From a virus: a DNA stretch of 11,077 bases. Of the stretch, positions 1 through 10,872 are shown one piece after another. The position numbers were made by a program, and so were the translations under genes. Under the pieces are notes generated by a model that did not search any database, had not been told where the DNA came from, and saw only the letters and a program-made list of their open reading frames with translations. Location: the UHGV virus genome UHGV-0128589; one strand, 5' to 3'. Position 1 is the first letter of the stretch. Every line of letters begins with the position of its first letter.

Positions 1-20
1 ACAGCAGAAAATTTGCGAGC

Positions 21-239
21 ATGATCGCAATTATTTCACTGCCAGGGATATCAATAGCTTCCAGTAAATCGCTACAGCAGGCAATTGCCAATATAAAAAT
101 CTGGCACAAGGGTGAACAGCGCGCGCCGCATAAGCCATTGTTATTGCTATACGTATTAGCGGGATACCTGAATGGACATCCGCGCCTTTTCGATTATTGT
201 AGTGGAACAGTCTACGAGGATGCAGTTCGAAGTGAGTAA
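21..239 (+). CDS. hypothetical protein, flanking DNA outside the satellite (possibly a gene fragment)
   Basis: 72-codon ORF from the ORF track; no motif I can name; lies left of the att-like repeat at 684-722. Confidence 0.3.
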   Translation: MIAIISLPGISIASSKSLQQAIANIKIWHKGEQRAPHKPLLLLYVLAGYLNGHPRLFDYCSGTVYEDAVRSE

Positions 240-262
240 GTAAAGGTTGCTGGAAACGATCA

Positions 263-481
263 ATGCCGCCATACAATGATTTTTTAGGATCAACAATGAG
301 TAATAAAAACTACGAAAGTCACCGCAAAGCGATTGTTAGTAAAGGTATACCACCCGCTCTATTAAATAGGCTCACCAATTCGGATGTTCAGGTGATCAAT
401 ACCTTCTTAACACGAGTGAGCAAACTGGAACTATCTCAACAAGAGAAAGACTGGATCATAAAAATCATCTCTATGGTTTAG
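263..481 (+). CDS. hypothetical protein, flanking DNA (start uncertain; internal ATG at 296 also possible)
   Basis: 72-codon ORF directly after the previous ORF on the same strand; no recognisable motif; the pair may be fragments of one disrupted gene. Confidence 0.3.
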   Translation: MPPYNDFLGSTMSNKNYESHRKAIVSKGIPPALLNRLTNSDVQVINTFLTRVSKLELSQQEKDWIIKIISMV

Positions 482-683
482 ACAATTTCAGCCTTGTAGC
501 CTTTCAAGGGTTTTGTGTGGGTACAAACATTATCGAATCGGGGTATAGCCGCAGCTGTAGCTGTATCCACATCAGTAAGTTGATGTAGGTTGACTTAGGT
601 TGAGCGAAAAATAGCGAAAAGCCTTGTGTGGCGCGGATTTCAGTCATAAAAAAACGTCCGTTGATGTCTATTGATGTTCCGAT

Positions 684-722
684 GGTGCGAAGGTGCGAAG
701 GTGCGAAGGCCGGACTCAAACC
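684..722. repeat. att-like degenerate copy of the tRNA-Leu 3-prime end (left boundary of the element), preceded by GGTGCGAA x3 tandem repeat
   Basis: ggtgcgaaggccggactcaaacc (700-722) matches tggtgccgaaggccggactcgaacc at 11024-11048 with one indel and one substitution; three tandem GGTGCGAA units at 684-707. Confidence 0.6.
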
Positions 723-772
723 ATCATGTAACACCATAAAATACAAGCAAAAAACATAAACTACACTTTAAA

Positions 773-792
773 GTGCCCCCTTTTGTGCCCCC
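773..792. repeat. GTGCCCCC direct repeat x2, candidate integrase arm-type site at the left end
   Basis: gtgccccc at 773-780 and 785-792; the same TGCCCCC(A) motif recurs beside the int start at 10862-10910. Confidence 0.4.
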
Positions 793-920
793 ACCATTTA
801 TTTGATAATTTTAAGCTCAACTAATTGGTTTATCTCGGAAAAGATAACAAATCCTATCTTCGGTTTGGATCCGTTGCACGGATCCAAATCGGAACAGAAA
901 AAAACTTTTTTTTAGGAAAA

Positions 921-1012
921 CTGTTCACACTGTTCACTAAGCATTTTTGTTTTTAATATTCAGTAAGTTATGCGGTGAATGGTTGGTGAACAGTGAACAC
1001 TTTACTGTTCAC
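921..1012. repeat. iteron cluster of TGTTCAC/GTGAACA octamer-like repeats (P4 ori/crr-type alpha-binding sites)
   Basis: ctgttcac at 921-928, 930-937 and 1005-1012; gtgaacag at 986-993; tgaacac at 994-1000; degenerate ggtgaat at 974-980; both orientations present. Confidence 0.6.
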
Positions 1013-1063: not shown

Positions 1064-3397
1064 TTATTTCGCTGTGGGGTCATCGCACTTCGGCAGCCAG
1101 TCGGCGTTGCTTTCTTCCCTGAGCGCAAGATTGGTCTGTATGCCCTGATTTTTACGGCGCTTCTCATAACTCAGTCCGTACTCTTTTAGCATCGCTGGCA
1201 GTCCCTTGCCGAACATGGTGAGGCTAAGAGTATTCTTGTAGCCGTGGGCCTCCATGTACGCCAGGTAGGCATGATAGAGGTAAAGTCGCGGCTGACGCGG
1301 AATGATGTTGGCATTGCCAATATACATACCCTCAGGTTCCGGCAGCGCCTCCAGATAGCCACAAAAATCAAATGTCGGGTCGGCGTCGCGCTTGATGCTG
1401 AGCGCCTCGTCGGAATTCTGCTGTGACTGGAGCAGTGTGCGCGCGGTCATCGGGTCGCTGAACTTCTGCATTAGCTGGCGCACAATGACGGCCAGCTCGC
1501 GGGCGATTTTGTTCTTAAGCTGCGGGTCGCGTTCTTCCGGGGCAATCTGCTCCGGGAAATGCAGAATCACCCGGCGACGGGAAACACCGCCGCTGCGGTC
1601 AGTAAAGCGCATCGGGTTATTGTTCACGGCCAGAATCACCGCCGGAATATGGGTGGAGTACGCATCCTTGTATTTCGGGTCTACCGATACCGCATCCCCG
1701 CCGGTGATGGCCTTGAGTCCGGCTCCGTCACCACTCCATTTTTCCTGGTCAGGCAGTCGAATCAGCGAGAAGCCAATCAGTGCGGCACGTTCACGCGGTG
1801 ATTCCAGCGTTTCGATGGTGGCCGACGTGGCGTTATCTTCCCCGGCAAGCATGGTCGCAATTTCGGCCAGAATACTTTTCCCGCTGCCGCCGGGCCCGGT
1901 CACCTCAAGAAAGAGCTGCCAGTCGTAGCGGTTCGCCAGCACCATAAACAGCGCGGCCAGAATCACATCGCGTTTTTCTGGTCTGCCACCGGCAGCACGG
2001 TCGAGCCAGCGCCAGAAATCCGGTGCATGGGTTTCCAGCGTTTCGCCCTCCACCGGCGGGGTAAAATCGACATCACAGAGTGTGCGCAGCCAGTGCGATT
2101 TATCATGCGGGTTGAATGTGCCGGTGGCGGTATCAAGTACGCCGTTGCGAAAGCCAATCAGACGCCGTGCCGGGGCGTCCTGCTGCGGAATAATCAGTTT
2201 CAGGGTCTCCACCACCGAGGCAATTTTTCCCGACGAGAACGGTGCGCGCAGACGCTGGAACAACCCGGCCACGTCGCGGGCAAAGTCCGACGGCGGAATG
2301 ATTTTCCATATCCCGGCCTCATAACGGGACAGGAGCTGGCCGTTCGCGTCCACGGCCAGCGCTTCGCCGTAATGCTCATGCACCCGCATCGCTTTTTCAC
2401 TGGTGCTCATGGCGGTAAATTCCGCCTCGCTCATGGTAGTGAAAGGACTGTCAGCCGGTGGCCGGATGGCCTCATAAATGGCTTTCCGCATCGCCTCCTC
2501 ACCTTTCTGTTCAAATGCGTCATTCCAGTCACCGAACACCGGCGGCAGGGCAACAATACCGTCACAGGCTTCTGCGGCCGCTGCGGCTTTACTCTGGCCG
2601 TCGCCGTTCAGGTCGCGGTCGGCGGCGAGGACAATCTGACAGGCCGGGTATTTCTGACGGGCAAGGCTCGCCAGAGAAAGGAGGTTTGCGGACGACAGTG
2701 CCACCATGACGGTTTCCCCGGTCAGGTGATGTACGGTGAGCGCGGTCGCATAGCCCTCCGCTATCCACAGCCGTTTTCCCGCCTGTTTTTTCCCTTCGAT
2801 GGTGTGGCACGCTCCTTTTACCGCCCCGCCTTTCAGGGTGCGTTTGAGACCCTCAGAATTGATGAGCTGAAGGTTAACCAGTGCATCGGTATTGTCATAC
2901 AGCGGGACAACCACATCACCGGCGCGGAACGTCACGCCGCCGGTTTTATGCACGGCCGTGAGCGTCAGACATTCCAGAGCGGGGAAGCCCTTGCGGGTCA
3001 GGTAGGCGTTGCCGCTGGCCGTGCGGGTTTTCTCCATCAGTCTGACGGCCAGCGTGGCCGCCGCTTTACGGTCTGCTTCGGTTTCAGCCTCTGCGGCCAC
3101 AATCACCTCCGGGGCAACCGGCGACAGGTTACCGGCGACGACATTCACCTTTTGGGCTGCCTCTGACGGATTAACGCCGAACACCTTTTCAACCAGTTTC
3201 AGGCCATCCCCTGCGCCGCACTGGTTACAGAACCACGTCCCGCGACCCTCTTTATCGTCAAACCGGAAACGGTCAGAACCGCCGCACACCGGGCAGGGCT
3301 GATGCCGGTTTTTAATGACCTTCACCCCCAGCGCCGGGAGAATGCGCGGCCAGTGGCCGCACGCCTGTTTTACGGTTTCCGTTACGTTCATTTTCAT
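1064..3397 (-). CDS. alpha: P4-type alpha protein: DNA primase / SF3 replicative helicase
   Basis: 777-aa ORF; N-terminal CxxC...CxxC zinc-binding primase region (CPVCGGSDRF...FCNQCGAG); Walker A P-loop GPGGSGKS in the C-terminal half; RBS GGGAGAA upstream; flanked by iterons, as for P4 alpha. Confidence 0.95.
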   Translation of the reverse strand: MKMNVTETVKQACGHWPRILPALGVKVIKNRHQPCPVCGGSDRFRFDDKEGRGTWFCNQCGAGDGLKLVEKVFGVNPSEAAQKVNVVAGNLSPVAPEVIVAAEAETEADRKAAATLAVRLMEKTRTASGNAYLTRKGFPALECLTLTAVHKTGGVTFRAGDVVVPLYDNTDALVNLQLINSEGLKRTLKGGAVKGACHTIEGKKQAGKRLWIAEGYATALTVHHLTGETVMVALSSANLLSLASLARQKYPACQIVLAADRDLNGDGQSKAAAAAEACDGIVALPPVFGDWNDAFEQKGEEAMRKAIYEAIRPPADSPFTTMSEAEFTAMSTSEKAMRVHEHYGEALAVDANGQLLSRYEAGIWKIIPPSDFARDVAGLFQRLRAPFSSGKIASVVETLKLIIPQQDAPARRLIGFRNGVLDTATGTFNPHDKSHWLRTLCDVDFTPPVEGETLETHAPDFWRWLDRAAGGRPEKRDVILAALFMVLANRYDWQLFLEVTGPGGSGKSILAEIATMLAGEDNATSATIETLESPRERAALIGFSLIRLPDQEKWSGDGAGLKAITGGDAVSVDPKYKDAYSTHIPAVILAVNNNPMRFTDRSGGVSRRRVILHFPEQIAPEERDPQLKNKIARELAVIVRQLMQKFSDPMTARTLLQSQQNSDEALSIKRDADPTFDFCGYLEALPEPEGMYIGNANIIPRQPRLYLYHAYLAYMEAHGYKNTLSLTMFGKGLPAMLKEYGLSYEKRRKNQGIQTNLALREESNADWLPKCDDPTAK

Positions 3398-3411
3398 TGT
3401 TTTTTTCTCCC

Positions 3412-3732
3412 TCAGTGCACAACAGGCGATTGCATGTGACGGGCGCAGAGTTCATCCATCACCGCAAGCCCGAGAAAGGACAGTGACGGCGCGGCTTTCA
3501 GTGGCCCGCCTTCCATTAAATCTTCCAGCAGGGCACAGGCAATCAGGCGGCCTTTTTCCTCGCCGTACTGGCGCAGATAGAAGCCTTCCAGTCCGGCAGC
3601 AATGGCGCTTTCCAGTGCATCAAGGGTGAGATGTGGATAGCGGTGCTGACGTTCGCACAGGGTCAGCCAGGCACAGGCCACGGCGCGACGATACAGCGCA
3701 GCACGCAGAACAGGGGATAATGAATTTTTCAT
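3412..3732 (-). CDS. small protein directly upstream of alpha; position matches P4 cnr (copy-number regulator), identity not established
   Basis: 106-aa ORF; its stop is 14 nt before the alpha start; its start overlaps the stop of the upstream ORF (ATGA), so likely co-transcribed. Confidence 0.65.
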
Positions 3733-3956
3733 ACATTGCCCTCCCCGGTCAGCCAGCGCTGATTGCAGCGTTCGACCACGCCGTCGAGCTGGGCGGTCAT
3801 GAGGTAAATCACGGAGGTAAGCTGTAACTGCTGCGCCGGGTCACGACGAATAGTGGCGCAGTCCTGCACCTGCATCAGTTCGCCGACGAGCTGGCCGACA
3901 TTGCGCATATGCTCCAGGCATTCGAGGTCACGGGCGGTAATGGTGGTGTGTCTCAT
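3729..3956 (-). CDS. hypothetical small protein of the left (replication) operon
   Basis: 75-aa ORF overlapping both neighbours by 4 nt (translational coupling); no recognisable motif. Confidence 0.55.
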
Positions 3957-4147
3957 GCGCGCACCTCCGCAACCGGCAGACGGCCAGCGAACGAGAGGAC
4001 GTAATCACGAACGAGGGAAAGGCGTGCGGCGTGTTCATCACCGGCAACGGTGCGGAGCATACAAATACGGGGTTTACGGTCTGCGCGACGTACAGCGGCA
4101 AACACAAAAACAAACTGCGGGTGTGACGGGGTGAGGGTCGTAGCCAT
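3953..4147 (-). CDS. Icd-like small protein (cell-division-inhibitor / P4 kil-position gene); the longer 183-aa ORF in the track is probably an artefact
   Basis: Internal start [16 protein letters not shown]... at 4147 with SD GGAGGT about 8 nt upstream (alternative ATG at 4171); N-terminus resembles proteins annotated Icd-like in P4-like prophages (from memory, unverified). Confidence 0.55.
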
Positions 4148-4350
4148 AGTGGCAACCTCCAATGTTTGCATGTGACTGCTACCACTGGAAACGCCAATTT
4201 CACTGGTGGTAGCCCAGACGGGGTTGGCGTAACCGGCAACATTGGAAACCGGCGCTTCGTGAGAAGCCCCCGCCTGAGCCACCATTACTCGAAGGATCCA
4301 AAGGTAGATAAATCTCTGGATCAAAAATGGATGCACTGAGGCATAGACAC

Positions 4351-4372
4351 AAAAAAAGACGCAAGGCGCGTC
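4351..4372 (-). terminator. candidate intrinsic terminator/attenuator inside the leader between the AlpA-like gene and the Icd-like gene
   Basis: On the minus strand GACGC-GCCTT-GCGTC (5-bp GC stem) immediately followed by TTTTTTT. Confidence 0.4.
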
Positions 4373-4500
4373 CGGTGTCGCCAATGTTGTAAACGGGACG
4401 CCAATCCCGGCTGCCGATTTTGCGACAGCGGGAAAACTATACCTGGAAACGGCAAACGGAAGCAAGCCAGAAAAAGGGACTTTTTGCTGAGCGGCCATCA

Positions 4501-4767
4501 TCATGCGTCATAACTCCGGTTGCGTTCGGCAATGCGATCCGCCATCCATGCGGTGATTTCAGACTGTGCCCACGCCACGTTTTTTCCGCCGAGGGAGATT
4601 TGTTTCGGGAATGCCTCGCGGCTGATGAGGTCGTAAATGGTCGACCGGGACAGGCCGCATAAATGCATCACTTCGGGCAGACGGATAAAGCGCTCCTGAA
4701 CGACATCAGAGACCGGCATCAGCGGGGCGGCAGGGGCAGAAGACGGGGAAGAAAAAGCGGTGTGCAT
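4501..4767 (-). CDS. AlpA/Vis-family helix-turn-helix regulator / excisionase
   Basis: 88-aa ORF with typical AlpA core [46 protein letters not shown]; SD GAGGT 7 nt upstream of the ATG at 4767; internal start at MPVSD also possible. Confidence 0.85.
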
Positions 4768-5034
4768 CGGGCTACCTCATAAAGTCCATACAGTGCCGGT
4801 CGTGTCCGTCCGGCTTCGGGTAGCTCTCTATTTTGTGAATATTTTTACTCAGGGCAACAAGTCATTTTGTAGTGGCTTACCATACAACAGATTGATTTTT
4901 AAACAATGGCAAACGCTGGCAAACAGATGCAAATCACTGCATTACATTGCAGCAACTTTTATTTCTTTTACTTATATATTTTTCTTTATCAATCGAAAAA
5001 AAGTCTAAGTGATATCGTCAGTGCAAAAAACAGA

Positions 5035-5140
5035 GGGTGAACAGTAGTGAACAGTCAGTGAACAGTTACACCCTCAACTGTTCACCCTTTATCTTACTGT
5101 ATTAATTATCTTTTTCTTTTTAGTGAACAGTAGTGAATAG
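5035..5140. repeat. second iteron cluster of GTGAACAG/CTGTTCACC repeats (P4 ori/crr-type)
   Basis: gtgaacag at 5037-5044, 5047-5054, 5058-5065 and 5123-5130; ctgttcaccc at 5078-5087; gtgaatag at 5133-5140; about 4.1 kb from the cluster at 921-1012. Confidence 0.65.
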
Positions 5141-5215
5141 TTATAAGTAAAAAACAAACAGTGAGTAAGGTTTTCCTGAGACCTTTCTCTGGCCAGCCGG
5201 GTTTTAAGGTCTGTT

Positions 5216-5233
5216 TGTGCCATTTTTGCCACA
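5216..5233 (+). promoter_or_regulatory. TGT-N12-ACA activator site of a P2/P4-type late promoter (Psid-like)
   Basis: tgt-gccatttttgcc-aca with exact 12-nt spacer, centred about 80 bp upstream of the sid start codon. Confidence 0.6.
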
Positions 5234-5305
5234 ACGGCAATGAATCGTGTTGTTGTGTCTGGCGCGGCAGAATCTCTTCAGATTGAAACGAAGAGGAGAC
5301 CCGAC

Positions 5306-6043
5306 ATGACTCAGACCGCTGTTATTCCCGACTATCTTAAACCCGCAATGGAACACCTTGAAACTGCCCGGTCAGCGCATCTTGCCAATGCCAGTCGAAT
5401 GGATGAAACCACGGCTGCCATCAGCCAGGTAAAAGCACAAAAAAATGAACTGGAGCAGGAAAATGGCAATGATTCCGGTGCATGGCGCACCGCCTTTCGT
5501 GCCGGTGGTGCTGTGATTACTGACGAGCTGAAACAACGCCATATAGCGCGTGTAGCACGGCGTGAACTGGTACAGGAATGTGACAGCATGACAGAGGTAT
5601 TGTCTTTTGAGCTGGACAACCTAAAGGGAGCCTGTGACAGCACGGCCAGAGCGTACCGCCAGGCACATCACGGCGTCCTCAGCCAGTATGCAAAGCATGA
5701 GCTCGATGTTGCCCTGCGTGAAACCTGTGGTGCTCTCGTCAGGGCAATGAAACTTAACATACTGGTTCTGAATAACCCTCTTGCCAATACCATCGGCCAT
5801 CAGGGATATACCGAACCGGAAAAGGCTGTGATGCAGCAGGTTAAAGCGTGGCTTGAACAGGCAGTGAAGGGCTGCAACATCCGCCTGACCGATGAGCCGG
5901 TGCTGTTTAAAACAGGACTGTCGGCCTCCACGCTGCCTCATATGGAGTATGACGTTGCGGCCACGCCCGGCCAGCGTCAGGTGTGGTTCGAGAAAATGAA
6001 CAAACGTGAGTCTGACCTTAAGGCCCGGGGGTTACTGTCATGA
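5306..6043 (+). CDS. sid: Sid-like capsid size determination (external scaffold) protein
   Basis: 245-aa product from the internal ATG at 5306 with SD GAGGAG upstream; first gene of a sid-delta-psu arrangement; the ORF-track start at 5240 has no RBS. Confidence 0.8.
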   Translation: MTQTAVIPDYLKPAMEHLETARSAHLANASRMDETTAAISQVKAQKNELEQENGNDSGAWRTAFRAGGAVITDELKQRHIARVARRELVQECDSMTEVLSFELDNLKGACDSTARAYRQAHHGVLSQYAKHELDVALRETCGALVRAMKLNILVLNNPLANTIGHQGYTEPEKAVMQQVKAWLEQAVKGCNIRLTDEPVLFKTGLSASTLPHMEYDVAATPGQRQVWFEKMNKRESDLKARGLLS

Positions 6044-6285
6044 TGCGCTGCCCTTTCTGCCGCACGGCGGCCCATGTGCGCACCAGCCGCTATATGTCTG
6101 ACAGCGTCAAAGAGAGCTACCTGCAGTGCCAGAATGTGCACTGCTCGGCGACGTTCAAAACACATGAGTCGATTTTTGAAGTGATCCGCTCGCCGGGTGT
6201 CGATGAGAAACCCGCGCCGGTGCCGACAGCGTCCGTTGCCATCCGCAAGGTAAAAGGCTGCTACAGCTCACCGTTCCGCCATTAA
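6040..6285 (+). CDS. delta: Ogr/Delta-family zinc-finger late transcriptional activator (single domain)
   Basis: 81-aa ORF with CPFC...(21 residues)...CQNVHC zinc-finger spacing; start overlaps the sid stop (ATGA). Confidence 0.85.
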   Translation: MMRCPFCRTAAHVRTSRYMSDSVKESYLQCQNVHCSATFKTHESIFEVIRSPGVDEKPAPVPTASVAIRKVKGCYSSPFRH

Positions 6286-6301
6286 TCAGGAGAGACAACA
6301 C

Positions 6302-6868
6302 GTGACCACCCTGACATTACAGCAGGCGTTTGAAGCCTGTCAGACGAACAAAACGGCGTGGCTGAATCGTAAAGCCGAACTGGCCTCCGCAGAGCAGGAA
6401 TATCAGGAATTATTACTGGATGACAACGCACCGGGTTCCCGCAGATTACAGATGCTACGTGACCTTATCGACGTAAAAAAATGGGAAGTTAATCAGGCCG
6501 CCGGTCGCTATATCTTCTCGCATGAGGAGGTACAGCGCATCAGCATCCGTAACCGTGTGCATGATTTTATGCAGCAGAACGGCGCAGAACTGGCCGCTGC
6601 ACTGGCCCCTGAGCTGATGGGGATTAAAAACCAGCCCGCGATGATAAAAAACCGTGCGCTTGACCGTTCAGTCACTTACCTGAGAGAAGCTCTTTCCGTC
6701 TGGCTGACCGCAGGAAATGAAATTAATTATTCGGCACAGGATAACGACATTTTAACGGCCATCGGATACAGGCCTGACGCGCCCTCGCGGGATGATTATC
6801 GTGAAAAATTCACCCCTGCACAGAACATGATTTACACCCGTCGACGCGCCGAACTGGCCGCGCAGTAG
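6302..6868 (+). CDS. psu: Psu-like polarity suppression / capsid decoration protein
   Basis: 188-aa ORF with GTG start and SD AGGAG upstream; N-terminus TLTLQQAFEACQTNKTAWLNRKAELASAEQEY resembles P4 Psu as I recall it; third gene after sid and delta. Confidence 0.8.
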   Translation: MTTLTLQQAFEACQTNKTAWLNRKAELASAEQEYQELLLDDNAPGSRRLQMLRDLIDVKKWEVNQAAGRYIFSHEEVQRISIRNRVHDFMQQNGAELAAALAPELMGIKNQPAMIKNRALDRSVTYLREALSVWLTAGNEINYSAQDNDILTAIGYRPDAPSRDDYREKFTPAQNMIYTRRRAELAAQ

Positions 6869-6941: not shown

Positions 6942-7034
6942 GCATGTGTTTTCCCGCCCCTGCACTCCCTGCCAGCGCCAGTCGCGGCGCGACCTGAGAC
7001 CACCTTTGCACCTGCATTAAAAGCGCCCCCTTAA

Positions 7035-7065
7035 GCGGGCAGGCGGGGCGGGGAGAGCATTGCGC
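7035..7065. other. candidate cos / packaging region
   Basis: GC-rich tract gggcaggcggggcggggagagcat loosely resembling the P2/P4 cohesive-end sequence as recalled; located between psu and the accessory genes, where cos lies in a permuted P4 prophage. Not an exact match. Confidence 0.25.
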
Positions 7066-7122
7066 GCAAGATGCCGCGCATTAAAAAGACGTTCTAAAAC
7101 GAAAAAAGCTATAGCGATGAAA

Positions 7123-7143
7123 CATATCTATAAGATAGATATG
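7123..7143. promoter_or_regulatory. perfect 9-bp inverted repeat (candidate operator) upstream of the accessory operon
   Basis: catatctat-aag-atagatatg, about 95 bp upstream of the ATG at 7239. Confidence 0.35.
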
Positions 7144-7238
7144 GCATTACTCCTAAATATGTGTAAAAAATAGTGATACCTATGCAACCCTTTTCTCTGC
7201 TCTTTCAAGGACAAATCTCAGGTTAAGAGAGTCATCAG

Positions 7239-7619
7239 ATGCTAAATCATATTTATGGAATTGTTGGTATAGTTGGCACATTAGTTACGATTGTGACGAG
7301 TTACATCAGAAATCAAGAATTGTCGCAATGGTTCCTTGTATGTTCTGGTTGGCTTACGGCTCTATTGATAGGTTGGTTCACGCATAGAACTATTAAAATT
7401 CTAAGCAAAGATCACAAAGAAACCATCATTAGTAATGATGGTATAAAGCAAACGCTTATAGAGCGGAATGAAACATTAACCACACAACTTACGCATGCAT
7501 TAGAACAGAAAGAAAAAATGGAAGGAATCGCGGCTTATTTAGCAACTCAGAACCCACAAATTAACGCCATGCCTAGAGCCATCGCGCGACAAGAAAATAC
7601 TGAGCTAGGAGGTAATTAA
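7239..7619 (+). CDS. small two-transmembrane-helix protein with C-terminal charged/helical tail; first gene of the accessory operon
   Basis: 126-aa ORF; hydrophobic segments IYGIVGIVGTLVTIVTSYI and WFLVCSGWLTALLIGWF; RBS AAGAGAG 7 nt upstream; AT-rich codon usage unlike the core genes. Confidence 0.7.
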   Translation: MLNHIYGIVGIVGTLVTIVTSYIRNQELSQWFLVCSGWLTALLIGWFTHRTIKILSKDHKETIISNDGIKQTLIERNETLTTQLTHALEQKEKMEGIAAYLATQNPQINAMPRAIARQENTELGGN

Positions 7620-7620
7620 G

Positions 7621-8685
7621 ATGAAAGTAAATTTTGATAGTTATTCATATTATCCTGCATTAAGAACTCGTGCAGCTGAAATACTTGGCTTGAGTAAGCT
7701 TGCTCATGATAAGAAAGAGAAAGTACTTCCACTTATAACCTTAGGGAAATGGCCCCGCTCAGATGAAATTCAAGTTTCTCTTGATAAGAGTCTGGAAGCA
7801 ATGAATAACTTGCCTTTTATTCTGGACGTTACTCAAGAGAACAAGCATCATTGCGCATCAAGCTTTGATCTTCTATCTTCCGAAAATAATTTTTCAAACT
7901 GGATAGCTTTCTGCTCTAAGAATGAGAATATTATCCCCGTAGTTCAAATGCCTGAATCTGCAAGATTAAGGGATATAGTACAGCAAGCAAGAATACTTGA
8001 AGAAAATAAAGGTTCCATTGCATTTCGCATAAAGAACCTTAACACTGATATAAATAAAACAATAGCATCACTTGTGTCTCTCGACTCCCCTGAAAATGCG
8101 GTTATATTCATAGACTTGGGTTACATTCGCGGACATGTCTCAGCAATGACGTCTGCTGCCATAAGTGCAATCAACCAAATAAGGACAGAAATTCCTGAAG
8201 CTATAATTAGTGTACTGTCGACTAGTTTCCCAAGTTCGGTCGCAAACTTTGCAGGAGAAAATGGTCAATCTGGTTATATTGACATTATGGAAAGAGAATT
8301 CCACCAAACTATTGGTGGTCGAGGAGTATCTATATACGGAGATCATAGTTCAATTCACTCTGTTGTATATGATGATGTTGGTGGACGTTATGTCCCAAGA
8401 ATTGACATTGCATTAGATGATGCTTGGTTTTTTGAGAGAAGACCAGGACTTGATAGTAAAGGCTATATAGAAGCAGCAAGAGCGATTCTTAAAAGATACC
8501 CTAATTATCTTGAAGAAGAATCCTGGGGTGCGCTGATGATTAAAAACGCTGCATCAGGCGATATTGCTGGTATGGGGAGTCCCGCTAAATGGATTTCTGT
8601 GCGCGTGAACCTTCATATAACAAAGCAAATTGAGCTATCAGAAGCACTTAAAACAGATTACGATCCTGAAGAGGATTTCTTCTAA
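7621..8685 (+). CDS. uncharacterised 354-aa protein, second gene of the accessory operon; function unknown
   Basis: Long ORF starting 1 nt after the upstream stop; strong SD AGGAGGT 9 nt upstream, embedded in the last codons of the upstream gene; no Walker or other catalytic motif recognisable by eye. Confidence 0.8.
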   Translation: MKVNFDSYSYYPALRTRAAEILGLSKLAHDKKEKVLPLITLGKWPRSDEIQVSLDKSLEAMNNLPFILDVTQENKHHCASSFDLLSSENNFSNWIAFCSKNENIIPVVQMPESARLRDIVQQARILEENKGSIAFRIKNLNTDINKTIASLVSLDSPENAVIFIDLGYIRGHVSAMTSAAISAINQIRTEIPEAIISVLSTSFPSSVANFAGENGQSGYIDIMEREFHQTIGGRGVSIYGDHSSIHSVVYDDVGGRYVPRIDIALDDAWFFERRPGLDSKGYIEAARAILKRYPNYLEEESWGALMIKNAASGDIAGMGSPAKWISVRVNLHITKQIELSEALKTDYDPEEDFF

Positions 8686-8710
8686 AAAATAAGGGAGGGC
8701 AGCCTCCCTT
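8683..8710 (-). terminator. terminator hairpin between the convergent accessory genes (strongest for the minus-strand gene)
   Basis: aagggagg-gcag-cctccctt perfect 8-bp stem; on the minus strand it is followed by ATTTTTT. Confidence 0.55.
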
Positions 8711-9503
8711 ATCGCACGACCCTTTTCAAAACTTTGATGGGAGTGATACTCCCAACCTCTCCGTGCTTTCTCATAAACCCCTCAATATCAACTGTATAAA
8801 AATCATCTAATTTTTCATCAGTATTATCTTCGAAATCTTTAAAGTGATTATGTTCCCGTCTCTTTTTTGATTTACTTAACAAAGTCAAATCGTTAGCATT
8901 CGATAATTCGCTACCTGCTAATTTCTTCAAGTAATCATCAGAAGTTTCTTTATAGCGTTGCTTAATTGCTTTAAGCGCAAAGTCTCTAATTCTAGATAGG
9001 GGAATTTGTTCAGCTATACGCTCTAAAGCCTCACGACCAGACTCGAGTAAAAACTTTTTCCCATTTTCAACAAGAAGTAATTGCAACTCTTTTTTCAGTA
9101 AGAAATTAATATAAACCTTCTTATTACCGAGTACTGCCGTACGCCCACGCTGAACTATTTTAAAACGAATGCCTTTACTAGTATTTATGTATTCAATAAC
9201 ACCAACATCTGATGTTACTTTCTTCGCAATTTCATAAGTAAATTTTGGGGCACAAACAACAGTTACCTTTTCAAAACGAGATGTAAAGGTTTCTAACTGA
9301 CCATCTAATCTTTTAAGAGAGTCAAAATCACTTTTTATTTCAAAAGCTTGCAAGTGTCCATTCGCAACGGCCAGATCAGCGCGGCGACTCCAATTCGCTA
9401 CAACCATTTCATTAATAATGGTTGCGTTCTCTAACAAGCCTTTTTTAAAAAGCCAGTCAATAAATGCGACTTTTACATCTTGCTCTCTTAATAAAAATGA
9501 CAT
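8709..9503 (-). CDS. stand-alone protein with N-terminal PD-(D/E)xK nuclease-like domain and charged helical C-terminal region
   Basis: 264-aa ORF; motif order E7 ... RADLAV (D42) ... AFEIKSD (E54-x-K56) fits the PD-(D/E)xK core; own extended -10 promoter and own terminator; very AT-rich. Confidence 0.8.
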   Translation of the reverse strand: MSFLLREQDVKVAFIDWLFKKGLLENATIINEMVVANWSRRADLAVANGHLQAFEIKSDFDSLKRLDGQLETFTSRFEKVTVVCAPKFTYEIAKKVTSDVGVIEYINTSKGIRFKIVQRGRTAVLGNKKVYINFLLKKELQLLLVENGKKFLLESGREALERIAEQIPLSRIRDFALKAIKQRYKETSDDYLKKLAGSELSNANDLTLLSKSKKRREHNHFKDFEDNTDEKLDDFYTVDIEGFMRKHGEVGSITPIKVLKRVVR

Positions 9504-9529
9504 AATCTCGTCACACCCTTAAAAATTGT

Positions 9530-9545
9530 TAAAAATTATAGCAAA
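9530..9545 (-). promoter_or_regulatory. candidate extended -10 promoter (TGcTATAAT) for the 8709..9503 gene
   Basis: Minus strand reads ttgcTATAATtttt in the 91-bp gap between the int stop and the downstream gene start. Confidence 0.4.
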
Positions 9546-9594
9546 AAAAACAAACTCCATCCATTATTCCTCTTGAGTTTTTTTTGATAAAGAG

Positions 9595-10872
9595 CTAGAT
9601 GTCATTTATTTTACTCCCACAGTCATACGGTGATATATACTCCTTATTATTTAGATCTAAATAATCAGCCCACCACTGAACCATTTTGCGCCTTTCATCT
9701 AAATGTTCTGATGTATGAATATAAGCAGCCCTAACGCCATTACGTTCTGTGTGACTCAACTGACGTTCTATAGCGTCATCGCTCCATAATCCTGACTCAC
9801 CCAGCGCACCACGGGCCATCGTTCTAAATCCATGCCCGCAAACTTCAGTTTTCGTGTCATAGCCCATCGCACGCAATGCGCTGTTTACCGTGTTTTCACT
9901 CATAACCTTAGTTGCGTCATGATCCCCCGGGAACAGCAGCTCTTTATCACCACTAATTTGCTTGAGCTGCTCTAATAAAACCATCGCCTGCCGACTGAGA
10001 GGAACAATATGCTCCTCTTTCATTTTCATGCCACGATACGAGTAACGCACGCCCTTAATTTCTTCTCGCTTTGCAGGTATACGCCAAAGAGATTTATCGA
10101 AGTCGAACTCATCCCAACGCGCGAAACGCAACTCACTGGAACGCACAAAAGTTAGTAAGGAAAGCTCAACCGCGATCCGTGTCATTACACGGCCACGATA
10201 TGCAGCAAGACGTGCAAGAAACTCAGGGAACCGGCTAGAGGGTAAAGCGGGGTAATGTCGCGCTTTGGTTGTCGATAGCGCACCGGCCATATCACTGGCT
10301 GGATTTGAGTCGATGTAATCGTTCTGTACTGCATAACGCATGATAGCCGTGACACGCTGCTGAAGACGCTGTGCGACGTCATGCTTACCACTTGCATCAA
10401 CTTTTTTAATCGGGGCTAACAGGTGGCTAGTCTTGAGCTGGCGAATGTCGGACGAACCAATATGAGGGAAGATATAAAGCTCAAGATAGCGAAGAACGCG
10501 CGATCGATGGTCTTCACTCCAGCGCTTGTTACTGGCGTGCCATTCACGAGCAATGGTTTCGAAAGTATATGCCCCCGAATTCTCGGCCTGAGCTTCTTTC
10601 TGTTCGGCTTTTGGGTCAATGCCCTGCACTAGCAGCTTTTTAGCTTCATCGCGCTTTGCTCTTGCCTGAGCAAGCGTCACAGTAGGCCAAACACCAAAAG
10701 CGAGGCGATCCTCTTTTTTGTCTGAGGGGCGTCTGTATTTCATGCGCCAGTATTTAGAACCCTTAGCCGAAATCTCGAGATACAAACCGCCGCCATCGGC
10801 CATTTTGTAGGTTTTTTCTTTTGGCTTTGCGGTCTCGACCTGTCTGGCGTTGAGCTTCATTTGGGGGCACAT
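9595..10872 (-). CDS. int: P4-type tyrosine integrase / site-specific recombinase
   Basis: 425-aa ORF; N-terminus with the ...KTYKMADGGGLYLEI... motif typical of P4-family integrases; C-terminal HGFRTMARG and downstream tyrosine (VRAAYIH); about 150 bp from the tRNA 3-prime end. Start may be the ATG at 10860 (MKLNARQ). Confidence 0.95.
   Translation of the reverse strand: MCPQMKLNARQVETAKPKEKTYKMADGGGLYLEISAKGSKYWRMKYRRPSDKKEDRLAFGVWPTVTLAQARAKRDEAKKLLVQGIDPKAEQKEAQAENSGAYTFETIAREWHASNKRWSEDHRSRVLRYLELYIFPHIGSSDIRQLKTSHLLAPIKKVDASGKHDVAQRLQQRVTAIMRYAVQNDYIDSNPASDMAGALSTTKARHYPALPSSRFPEFLARLAAYRGRVMTRIAVELSLLTFVRSSELRFARWDEFDFDKSLWRIPAKREEIKGVRYSYRGMKMKEEHIVPLSRQAMVLLEQLKQISGDKELLFPGDHDATKVMSENTVNSALRAMGYDTKTEVCGHGFRTMARGALGESGLWSDDAIERQLSHTERNGVRAAYIHTSEHLDERRKMVQWWADYLDLNNKEYISPYDCGSKINDI

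Follow-up and report, generated by a model that had tools for sequence, protein, structure and literature searches.

A predicted PD-(D/E)xK nuclease-like fold in cII, the convergent partner of Beta in the gop-beta-cII anti-phage module of a P4-like satellite

The virus genome UHGV-0128589 contains, in the 11,077-nucleotide stretch of DNA analysed here (the window), an intact minus-strand open reading frame (ORF) for a protein of 264 amino acids, which faces two ORFs on the opposite strand. The locus raises the question of what this protein is, whether it acts alone or together with its neighbours, and which part it may play in phage defence. An initial annotation, made from the sequence alone, read it as a stand-alone gene for a PD-(D/E)xK nuclease-like protein, either an independent single-gene defence nuclease or the effector of the neighbouring pair. 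The ORF is real and begins with an ATG codon; it is cII, one of the three genes of a known anti-phage module, gop-beta-cII. Its product is predicted to adopt a PD-(D/E)xK nuclease-like fold, and its near-obligate partner is Beta.

Identity of cII and of its module

The cII protein matches the PADLOC cll entry over its full length (1.5e-116) and belongs to the NCBIfam family sce7726 (NF033832), a model of 184 positions with a curated cut-off of 70 bits, against which residues 6-185 score 141.3 bits (E 3.2e-41). Its homologues all carry the precomputed assignment PF26915, "Phage_P4_cII", and it is 55.5% identical to the cII protein of phage P4. Identical proteins at NCBI, all from E. coli, are named "sce7726 family protein", "protein beta" or "protein gop", and relatives from Klebsiella, Enterobacter, Salmonella and Serratia fall within the same 90%-identity clusters. 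Other resources add little: a local copy of Pfam gives no significant match for cII, PHROGs labels both cII and Beta as being of unknown function, and comparison of the two sequences with solved structures returns noise only. A megablast search of window positions 7000-9600 against a phage collection found no match and none to P4 DNA, and the relationship with P4 is therefore seen at the protein level only.

All three proteins of the module match PADLOC entries over their full length, with values of 5.7e-73 for Gop and 3.2e-188 for Beta. The layout is likewise that of the PADLOC system gop_beta_cll: gop and beta are co-directional, adjacent and co-transcribed with a gap of 1 nucleotide (nt), cII is convergent with them, and the three genes occupy the hotspot between psu/cos and int. 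The P4 module has the same gene order, orientation and int/cos neighbours, as does that of an E. coli P4-like prophage, and the protein lengths of P4 and the window agree (126-133, 354-355 and 264 amino acids). For the prototype of the system, protection against the phages lambda and P1 has been reported (Rousset 2022; PMC9122126). Gop is described as toxic when Beta is missing (Ghisotti 1990, as cited in PMC9122126), and the system kills the cell in response to a phage gene, orf184 (Silas et al., bioRxiv 10.1101/2023.04.06.535777). The gene, its family and the system thus already have names, and experiments have tied the system to phage defence (PMC9122126); the locus is therefore already known, which the initial annotation had not recognised.

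Like its P4 counterpart, cII appears to have transcription signals of its own. It lies directly downstream of int on the same strand. An extended -10 element, TGCTATAAT, preceded by a weak -35 element, ends 31 nt before the ATG codon and is the putative promoter. The sequence TGNTATAAT occurs once in the 11-kb window when both strands are searched, against an expectation of 0.41 for the whole window. P4 and the orthologous loci L004 and L007 keep the TGCTATAAT box with an unchanged distance to the ATG, although the surrounding spacer has diverged. At the other end of the gene, a hairpin followed by a U-run overlaps with the stop codon of cII and borders on that of beta (8683-8685); the P4 records M27748 and X51522 annotate the equivalent element as a putative rho-independent terminator of cII. 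The hairpin has no T-run on the plus strand, so termination of the gop-beta transcripts at this site is doubtful. Both signals, as well as the convergence of the gene with the operon, had been noticed in the initial annotation and hold good as sequence features; the two signals were confirmed by reading the sequence itself, by folding and by a search for the pattern. A consensus promoter and terminator scan of 7000-9700 reported neither the extended -10 element nor the 11-bp hairpin, and because it missed both, its negatives are not evidence of absence.

Predicted fold and candidate catalytic residues

An AlphaFold2 model of cII built from 49 homologues (mean predicted local distance difference test score, pLDDT, 88.4) comprises an N-terminal nuclease-fold domain, a helical SAP-like domain and a C-terminal extension (Table 1). 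According to this model the N-terminal half is a restriction-endonuclease-like core that runs through a helix (7-20), three strands (28-36, 40-47 and 51-57), a further helix (66-76) and a strand (79-84). Fold searches with the model return almost only restriction-endonuclease-like nucleases, the best matches being SPO1766 (PDB 3dnx) and archaeal PD-(D/E)xK nucleases of the Hjc/NucS type, with an XisH-like excision factor also among the top matches. The 3dnx structure has been grouped with Holliday-junction resolvase-like folds (PMC4838377). There is no detectable sequence similarity between cII and 3dnx or the Hjc/NucS-type enzymes, and cII differs from them by the addition of the SAP-like domain and the tail.

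The initial annotation proposed the order of an early glutamate, an aspartate and an ExK motif, and these residues are found at E7, at D43 within RADLAV and at E55-I-K57 within AFEIKSD, the codons of D43, E55 and K57 having been read directly in the DNA. In the model D43 lies on strand 40-47 and E55 and K57 lie on strand 51-57, and this placement of D and ExK on strands 2 and 3 together with an upstream acidic residue agrees with the structural and residue features of the PD-(D/E)xK superfamily. The candidate catalytic residues are E32, D43, E55 and K57. All of them are invariant in the alignment of 49 sequences, which spans down to 24% identity, as are R41, S58, D61, R65 and Q69. A pattern scan of 100,044 species genomes yielded 80 unique homologues from across the phyla, of which 79 to 80 retain E32, R41, D43, D61, R65 and Q69. 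Because the scan pattern itself required E55 and K57, the invariance of these two counts in the 49-sequence set only. Position 7 is acidic (D or E) in 70 of the 80. The helix after the ExK strand also contains a QxxxY/F motif, in which 79/80 homologues keep Q69 and 78/80 have Y or F at position 73 (Y in 69/80). A QxxxY motif in this helix marks the RecB/Cas4-like nuclease subgroup, of which cII is at most a candidate member; Cas4 SSO0001 is only a weak Foldseek match (E 0.06).

A PD-(D/E)xK nuclease-like fold of cII is thus supported by the confident model, the fold searches and the invariant D and ExK residues. The core is present in the model and recovered by the fold searches, and the motif residues are conserved in the alignments, hence the nuclease-fold reading of the initial annotation stands.

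The last 150 residues had been described as lysine- and glutamate-rich, helical and devoid of a recognisable motif. They are indeed helical in the model and contain 22% K+E, but the absence of a motif appears not to hold, as residues 125-185 form a predicted SAP-like domain. The tail that follows (residues 186-264) is present in 16/16 gop-linked homologues and in 7/64 others, whereas most members of the sce7726 family are about 180-205 amino acids long and lack the 79-residue tail of the window protein. A strict tie between tail and Gop was considered and rejected, as loci of Photorhabdus and Paraburkholderia have the tail and beta but no gop. The tail is therefore a feature of a clade and not a strict Gop-interaction module.

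Pairing with Beta and setting of the module

The gene neighbourhood of cII was compared in 87 loci, in which ORFs were called and iterative profiles were built for the three proteins. These loci come from Proteobacteria, Firmicutes, Bacteroidota, Actinobacteria, Chloroflexi, Planctomycetes, Acidobacteria and other phyla. A Beta_protein gene lies immediately downstream on the opposite strand in 83 of the 87; for two of the other four, the sequence stops less than 65 nt from the cII homologue, so that the flank is missing. Every cII/sce7726-beta pair seen is convergent, and in 55 of 71 unique pairs the 3' ends of the two genes overlap (median -30 nt, maximum 137 nt), the same overlaps being given independently by the RefSeq/PGAP annotation of plasmids. 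In the window, by contrast, the pair is separated by 23 nt that hold the hairpin, with its U-run on the cII strand only. The convergent 3' arrangement may serve antisense or transcriptional-interference control.

In contrast to beta, gop is present in only 20 loci (16 after deduplication), and cII is long-tailed in all of them. In the other loci Beta is preceded by a gene for an Xre-type helix-turn-helix (HTH)/M78 peptidase or an AAA ATPase (PDC-S59), or there is none, and two-gene modules of Beta and sce7726 exist without another effector candidate. One such module lies in a lambdoid prophage region on the E. coli plasmid pSTEC1024_3 (locus L090, 3989-5624), where beta and sce7726 overlap by 41 nt at their 3' ends and gop is absent. 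It recurs at an identity of at least 97.9% in 93 of 5426 complete E. coli genomes, again in lambdoid prophages; many of these 93 are O111 and O121 strains. Conversely, a Roseovarius plasmid (L092) and a Rhizobium phaseoli plasmid (L093) carry Beta with an Xre-family regulator and no annotated sce7726 gene. Beta with an Xre-peptidase thus occurs without sce7726, which indicates that Beta can work without the nuclease, whereas sce7726 without Beta is almost never seen; this one-sided association fits a dependence of cII on Beta. The partner of cII is Beta and not Gop, and the pairing is near-obligate. With Beta tail-to-tail in 83/87 loci and cII one of three genes of a module, the proposal of a stand-alone gene or independent single-gene nuclease is not borne out, while a role of cII as the effector for its two neighbours would agree with the evidence, though it is unproven.

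Several known systems share parts of this arrangement. The sce7725 (Beta_protein)/sce7726 pairs (NF033832; PF14350, PF26915) share the family score and the convergent Beta with the window, but most of their loci have no gop and most overlap at their 3' ends instead of being spaced by a hairpin. In PD-lambda-2 a Beta homologue is required for defence (Vassallo 2022; PMC9519451), and the toxic partner is a HigB-like protein with an Xre-M78 peptidase where the window has Gop; the published description contains no nuclease gene (PMC9519451). Natural loci with a PD-lambda-2B-type Xre-peptidase upstream of Beta nevertheless carry a convergent sce7726 gene. The Xre-HTH/M78 peptidase of such loci matches PD-Lambda-2_B (1e-93) and the adjoining Beta matches PD-Lambda-2_C (2e-59). 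Loci L057, L077 and L091, the last on the Agrobacterium plasmid pAt2788b (1752-5106), combine an Xre-M78 peptidase, Beta and a convergent, overlapping sce7726. The PD-lambda-2 locus of ECOR42 itself was sought by a DNA search of E. coli genomes, which gave the lambdoid two-gene module only, and a protein search gave no E. coli among the best 120 matches. Literature searches for Beta_protein and PF26915 returned unrelated papers only.

Can2, Cap4 and Cdn1, which are among the fold matches of cII, likewise have a PD-(D/E)xK effector domain, which is inactive until a sensor is triggered. Unlike these proteins, cII lacks a ligand-binding domain of the CARF or SAVED type, and its locus has no cyclase, so control of cII would have to come from Beta. 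A type II restriction-modification system was also considered and rejected, there being no methyltransferase domain and the neighbours being Gop and a TIM-barrel Beta.

The backbone of the window is a P4-like satellite prophage, as judged from ORF calls and Pfam, and includes AlpA, Ash and DUF5375 besides the backbone genes of Table 1. The three ORFs of the module form an insert between psu and int and occupy the variable cargo/defence hotspot of P4-like satellites, from psu/cos to int. This cargo is nonessential, and different defence systems take its place elsewhere among P4-like elements (PMC9122126). The gop-beta-cII cargo (7239-9503) has a GC content of 37%, compared with 55% in the satellite core (1064-6868) and 48% in int, which fits recent horizontal acquisition into the hotspot. 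The left end of the window (1-1000), past the primase gene, likewise has a low GC content (about 40-43%) and holds two 72-amino-acid ORFs on the plus strand (21-239 and 263-481) without a Pfam match. No tRNA gene was found anywhere in the window. Between psu and gop, where cos lies in P4, the window reads GGCGGGGCGGGGAGAGCAT (7040-7058), which resembles the 19-nt cohesive-end (cos) sequence of P2 and P4. The P4 map begins at cos, with gop at 247 (P4 GenBank record). About 100 nt upstream of gop stands an operator-like perfect inverted repeat of 9 bp, CATATCTAT-N3-ATAGATATG (7123-7143), of which 8/9 positions are retained in the Enterobacter orthologue L004.

Table 1. Features of the cII gene and its surroundings in the window
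Feature	Position	Strand	Details
cII gene	8709-9503	-	ORF call, intact; sce7726 family, Pfam PF26915 Phage_P4_cII; 264 aa, ATG start
Extended -10 element TGCTATAAT, weak -35	9543-9535	-	Pattern search; putative cII promoter
Putative intrinsic terminator of cII	8684-8713	-	RNA fold; 11-bp stem 8713-8688, CUGC loop, U-run to 8684
Predicted N-terminal PD-(D/E)xK nuclease-fold domain	9144-9503	-	Residues 1-120
Candidate catalytic residues	9333-9410	-	E32 (9408-9410), D43 (9375-9377), E55 (9339-9341), K57 (9333-9335)
Q69xxxF73	9285-9299	-	
Predicted SAP-like helical domain	8949-9131	-	Residues 125-185, LLKKELQLLLVENGKKF...GREALERI
C-terminal extension	8709-8948	-	Residues 186-264, charged, pLDDT 44-86; outside the 184-position NCBIfam model
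gop gene	7239-7619	+	Small membrane protein; PADLOC gop; hydrophobic N-terminal segments
beta gene	7621-8685	+	Convergent partner of cII; Pfam Beta_protein PF14350; predicted TIM barrel
Integrase	9595-10872	-	Pfam-confirmed
Psu	6302-6868	+	Pfam-confirmed
Ogr/Delta	6040-6285	+	Pfam-confirmed
Primase	1064-3397	-	777 aa

Proposed mechanism and alternatives

From its predicted fold and its partner, cII may well be an active, metal-dependent nuclease that depends on Beta and acts on DNA as one arm of an abortive-infection module. The protein would bind DNA through its SAP-like domain. Beta would act as a hub that restrains or licenses toxic partners, which would be Gop at the membrane in this locus and the Xre-peptidase in PD-lambda-2-type loci. 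A phage trigger that disturbs Beta would then lead to the cutting of DNA by cII and to membrane damage by Gop, and infection would be aborted. Convergent transcription from separate promoters would allow the ratio of nuclease to Beta to be set independently.

A number of points weigh against a nuclease role of this kind. Gop alone could be the killing effector, and the PD-(D/E)xK fold is also used by non-catalytic or regulatory DNA binders, of which the XisH-like factor is an example. The SAP-like assignment is weak at the sequence level, since SAP (PF02037) was not found when the middle segment was scanned by itself. The published PD-lambda-2 clone (ECOR42 QOYB01000002, 228989-232396) ends 396 bp past the Beta gene (gene C), which is too short for an intact convergent sce7726, so that any such gene would be truncated there and the nuclease may be dispensable in PD-lambda-2. 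A literature search found neither nuclease activity data for any sce7726/cII protein nor a paper that dissects the contribution of cII or the mechanism of cII/sce7726.

It is conceivable, if rather unlikely, that cII is instead a DNA-binding sensor or regulator with a nuclease fold, which would detect a structure in phage DNA or control the expression of gop-beta, perhaps by way of the antisense overlap, and that Gop does the killing. The name cII reportedly goes back to a P4 plaque phenotype in the 1990 work of Ghisotti, which counts towards such a role; the SAP-like domain would likewise suit a binder, and the convergent, overlapping 3' ends would suit mutual transcriptional control. The palindrome upstream of gop points in the same direction but is not conserved in P4. 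Gop, moreover, is the demonstrated toxin (Ghisotti 1990, as cited in PMC9122126). On the other side, the catalytic-type residues are all invariant across phyla, which is unusual for a fold used for binding only, and the two-gene Beta+sce7726 loci have neither Gop nor another toxin to carry out the killing.

The remaining alternatives are less probable still. The nearest solved fold to Beta is that of the DNA transglycosylase DpdA, and on this resemblance an arrangement akin to restriction-modification may be built, in which the TIM-barrel Beta would exchange bases like DpdA/TGT and cII would cut DNA that lacks or carries the mark; such a pair is judged improbable. The adjacent integrase and the XisH-like match bring to mind an accessory of lysogeny or recombination of the satellite, for instance an excision-controlling factor. 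This appears highly improbable, as the gene travels with Beta and not with an integrase across the 80 genomes, many loci lie outside the integration modules of mobile elements, and the region is nonessential cargo that other P4-like elements replace (PMC9122126); an integrase accessory was accordingly rejected, the homologues not being linked to integrases. A stand-alone defence nuclease that happens to lie beside gop-beta would account for the promoter-like box and the terminator of cII, but it is barely credible given a convergent and often overlapping Beta in nearly all loci and a system that both PADLOC and the literature define as one of three genes (PMC9122126).

A broader extension of the Beta-dependent nuclease reading is put forward with considerable doubt. 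Beta and sce7726/cII would form an ancient two-gene core, convergent and overlapping at the 3' ends and spread across many phyla, of which gop-beta-cII and PD-lambda-2 would be two versions with different toxic modules; Beta would act on nucleic acid, cII would be the nuclease working with it, and antisense overlap between the two mRNAs would serve as a switch of their ratio. The literature searched contains no description of an ancient Beta/sce7726 core, of a DpdA-like Beta or of an antisense switch.

The result does not reveal a novel type of system. At the level of annotation, three points may be new: the nuclease plus SAP-like architecture, the universality of the core in which Beta and sce7726 are convergent and overlapping, and the connection of gop-beta-cII with PD-lambda-2. 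As an anti-phage module of P4-like satellites gop-beta-cII has been validated, with no published mechanism, and cII, its least-studied gene, receives a testable assignment in the form of a predicted nuclease fold, the candidate residues E32, D43, E55 and K57 and a likely DNA-binding domain. The same pair of Beta and predicted nuclease underlies PD-lambda-2-like loci and the two-gene module of E. coli lambdoid prophages, which narrows the experiments by which the role of cII in these elements may be established.
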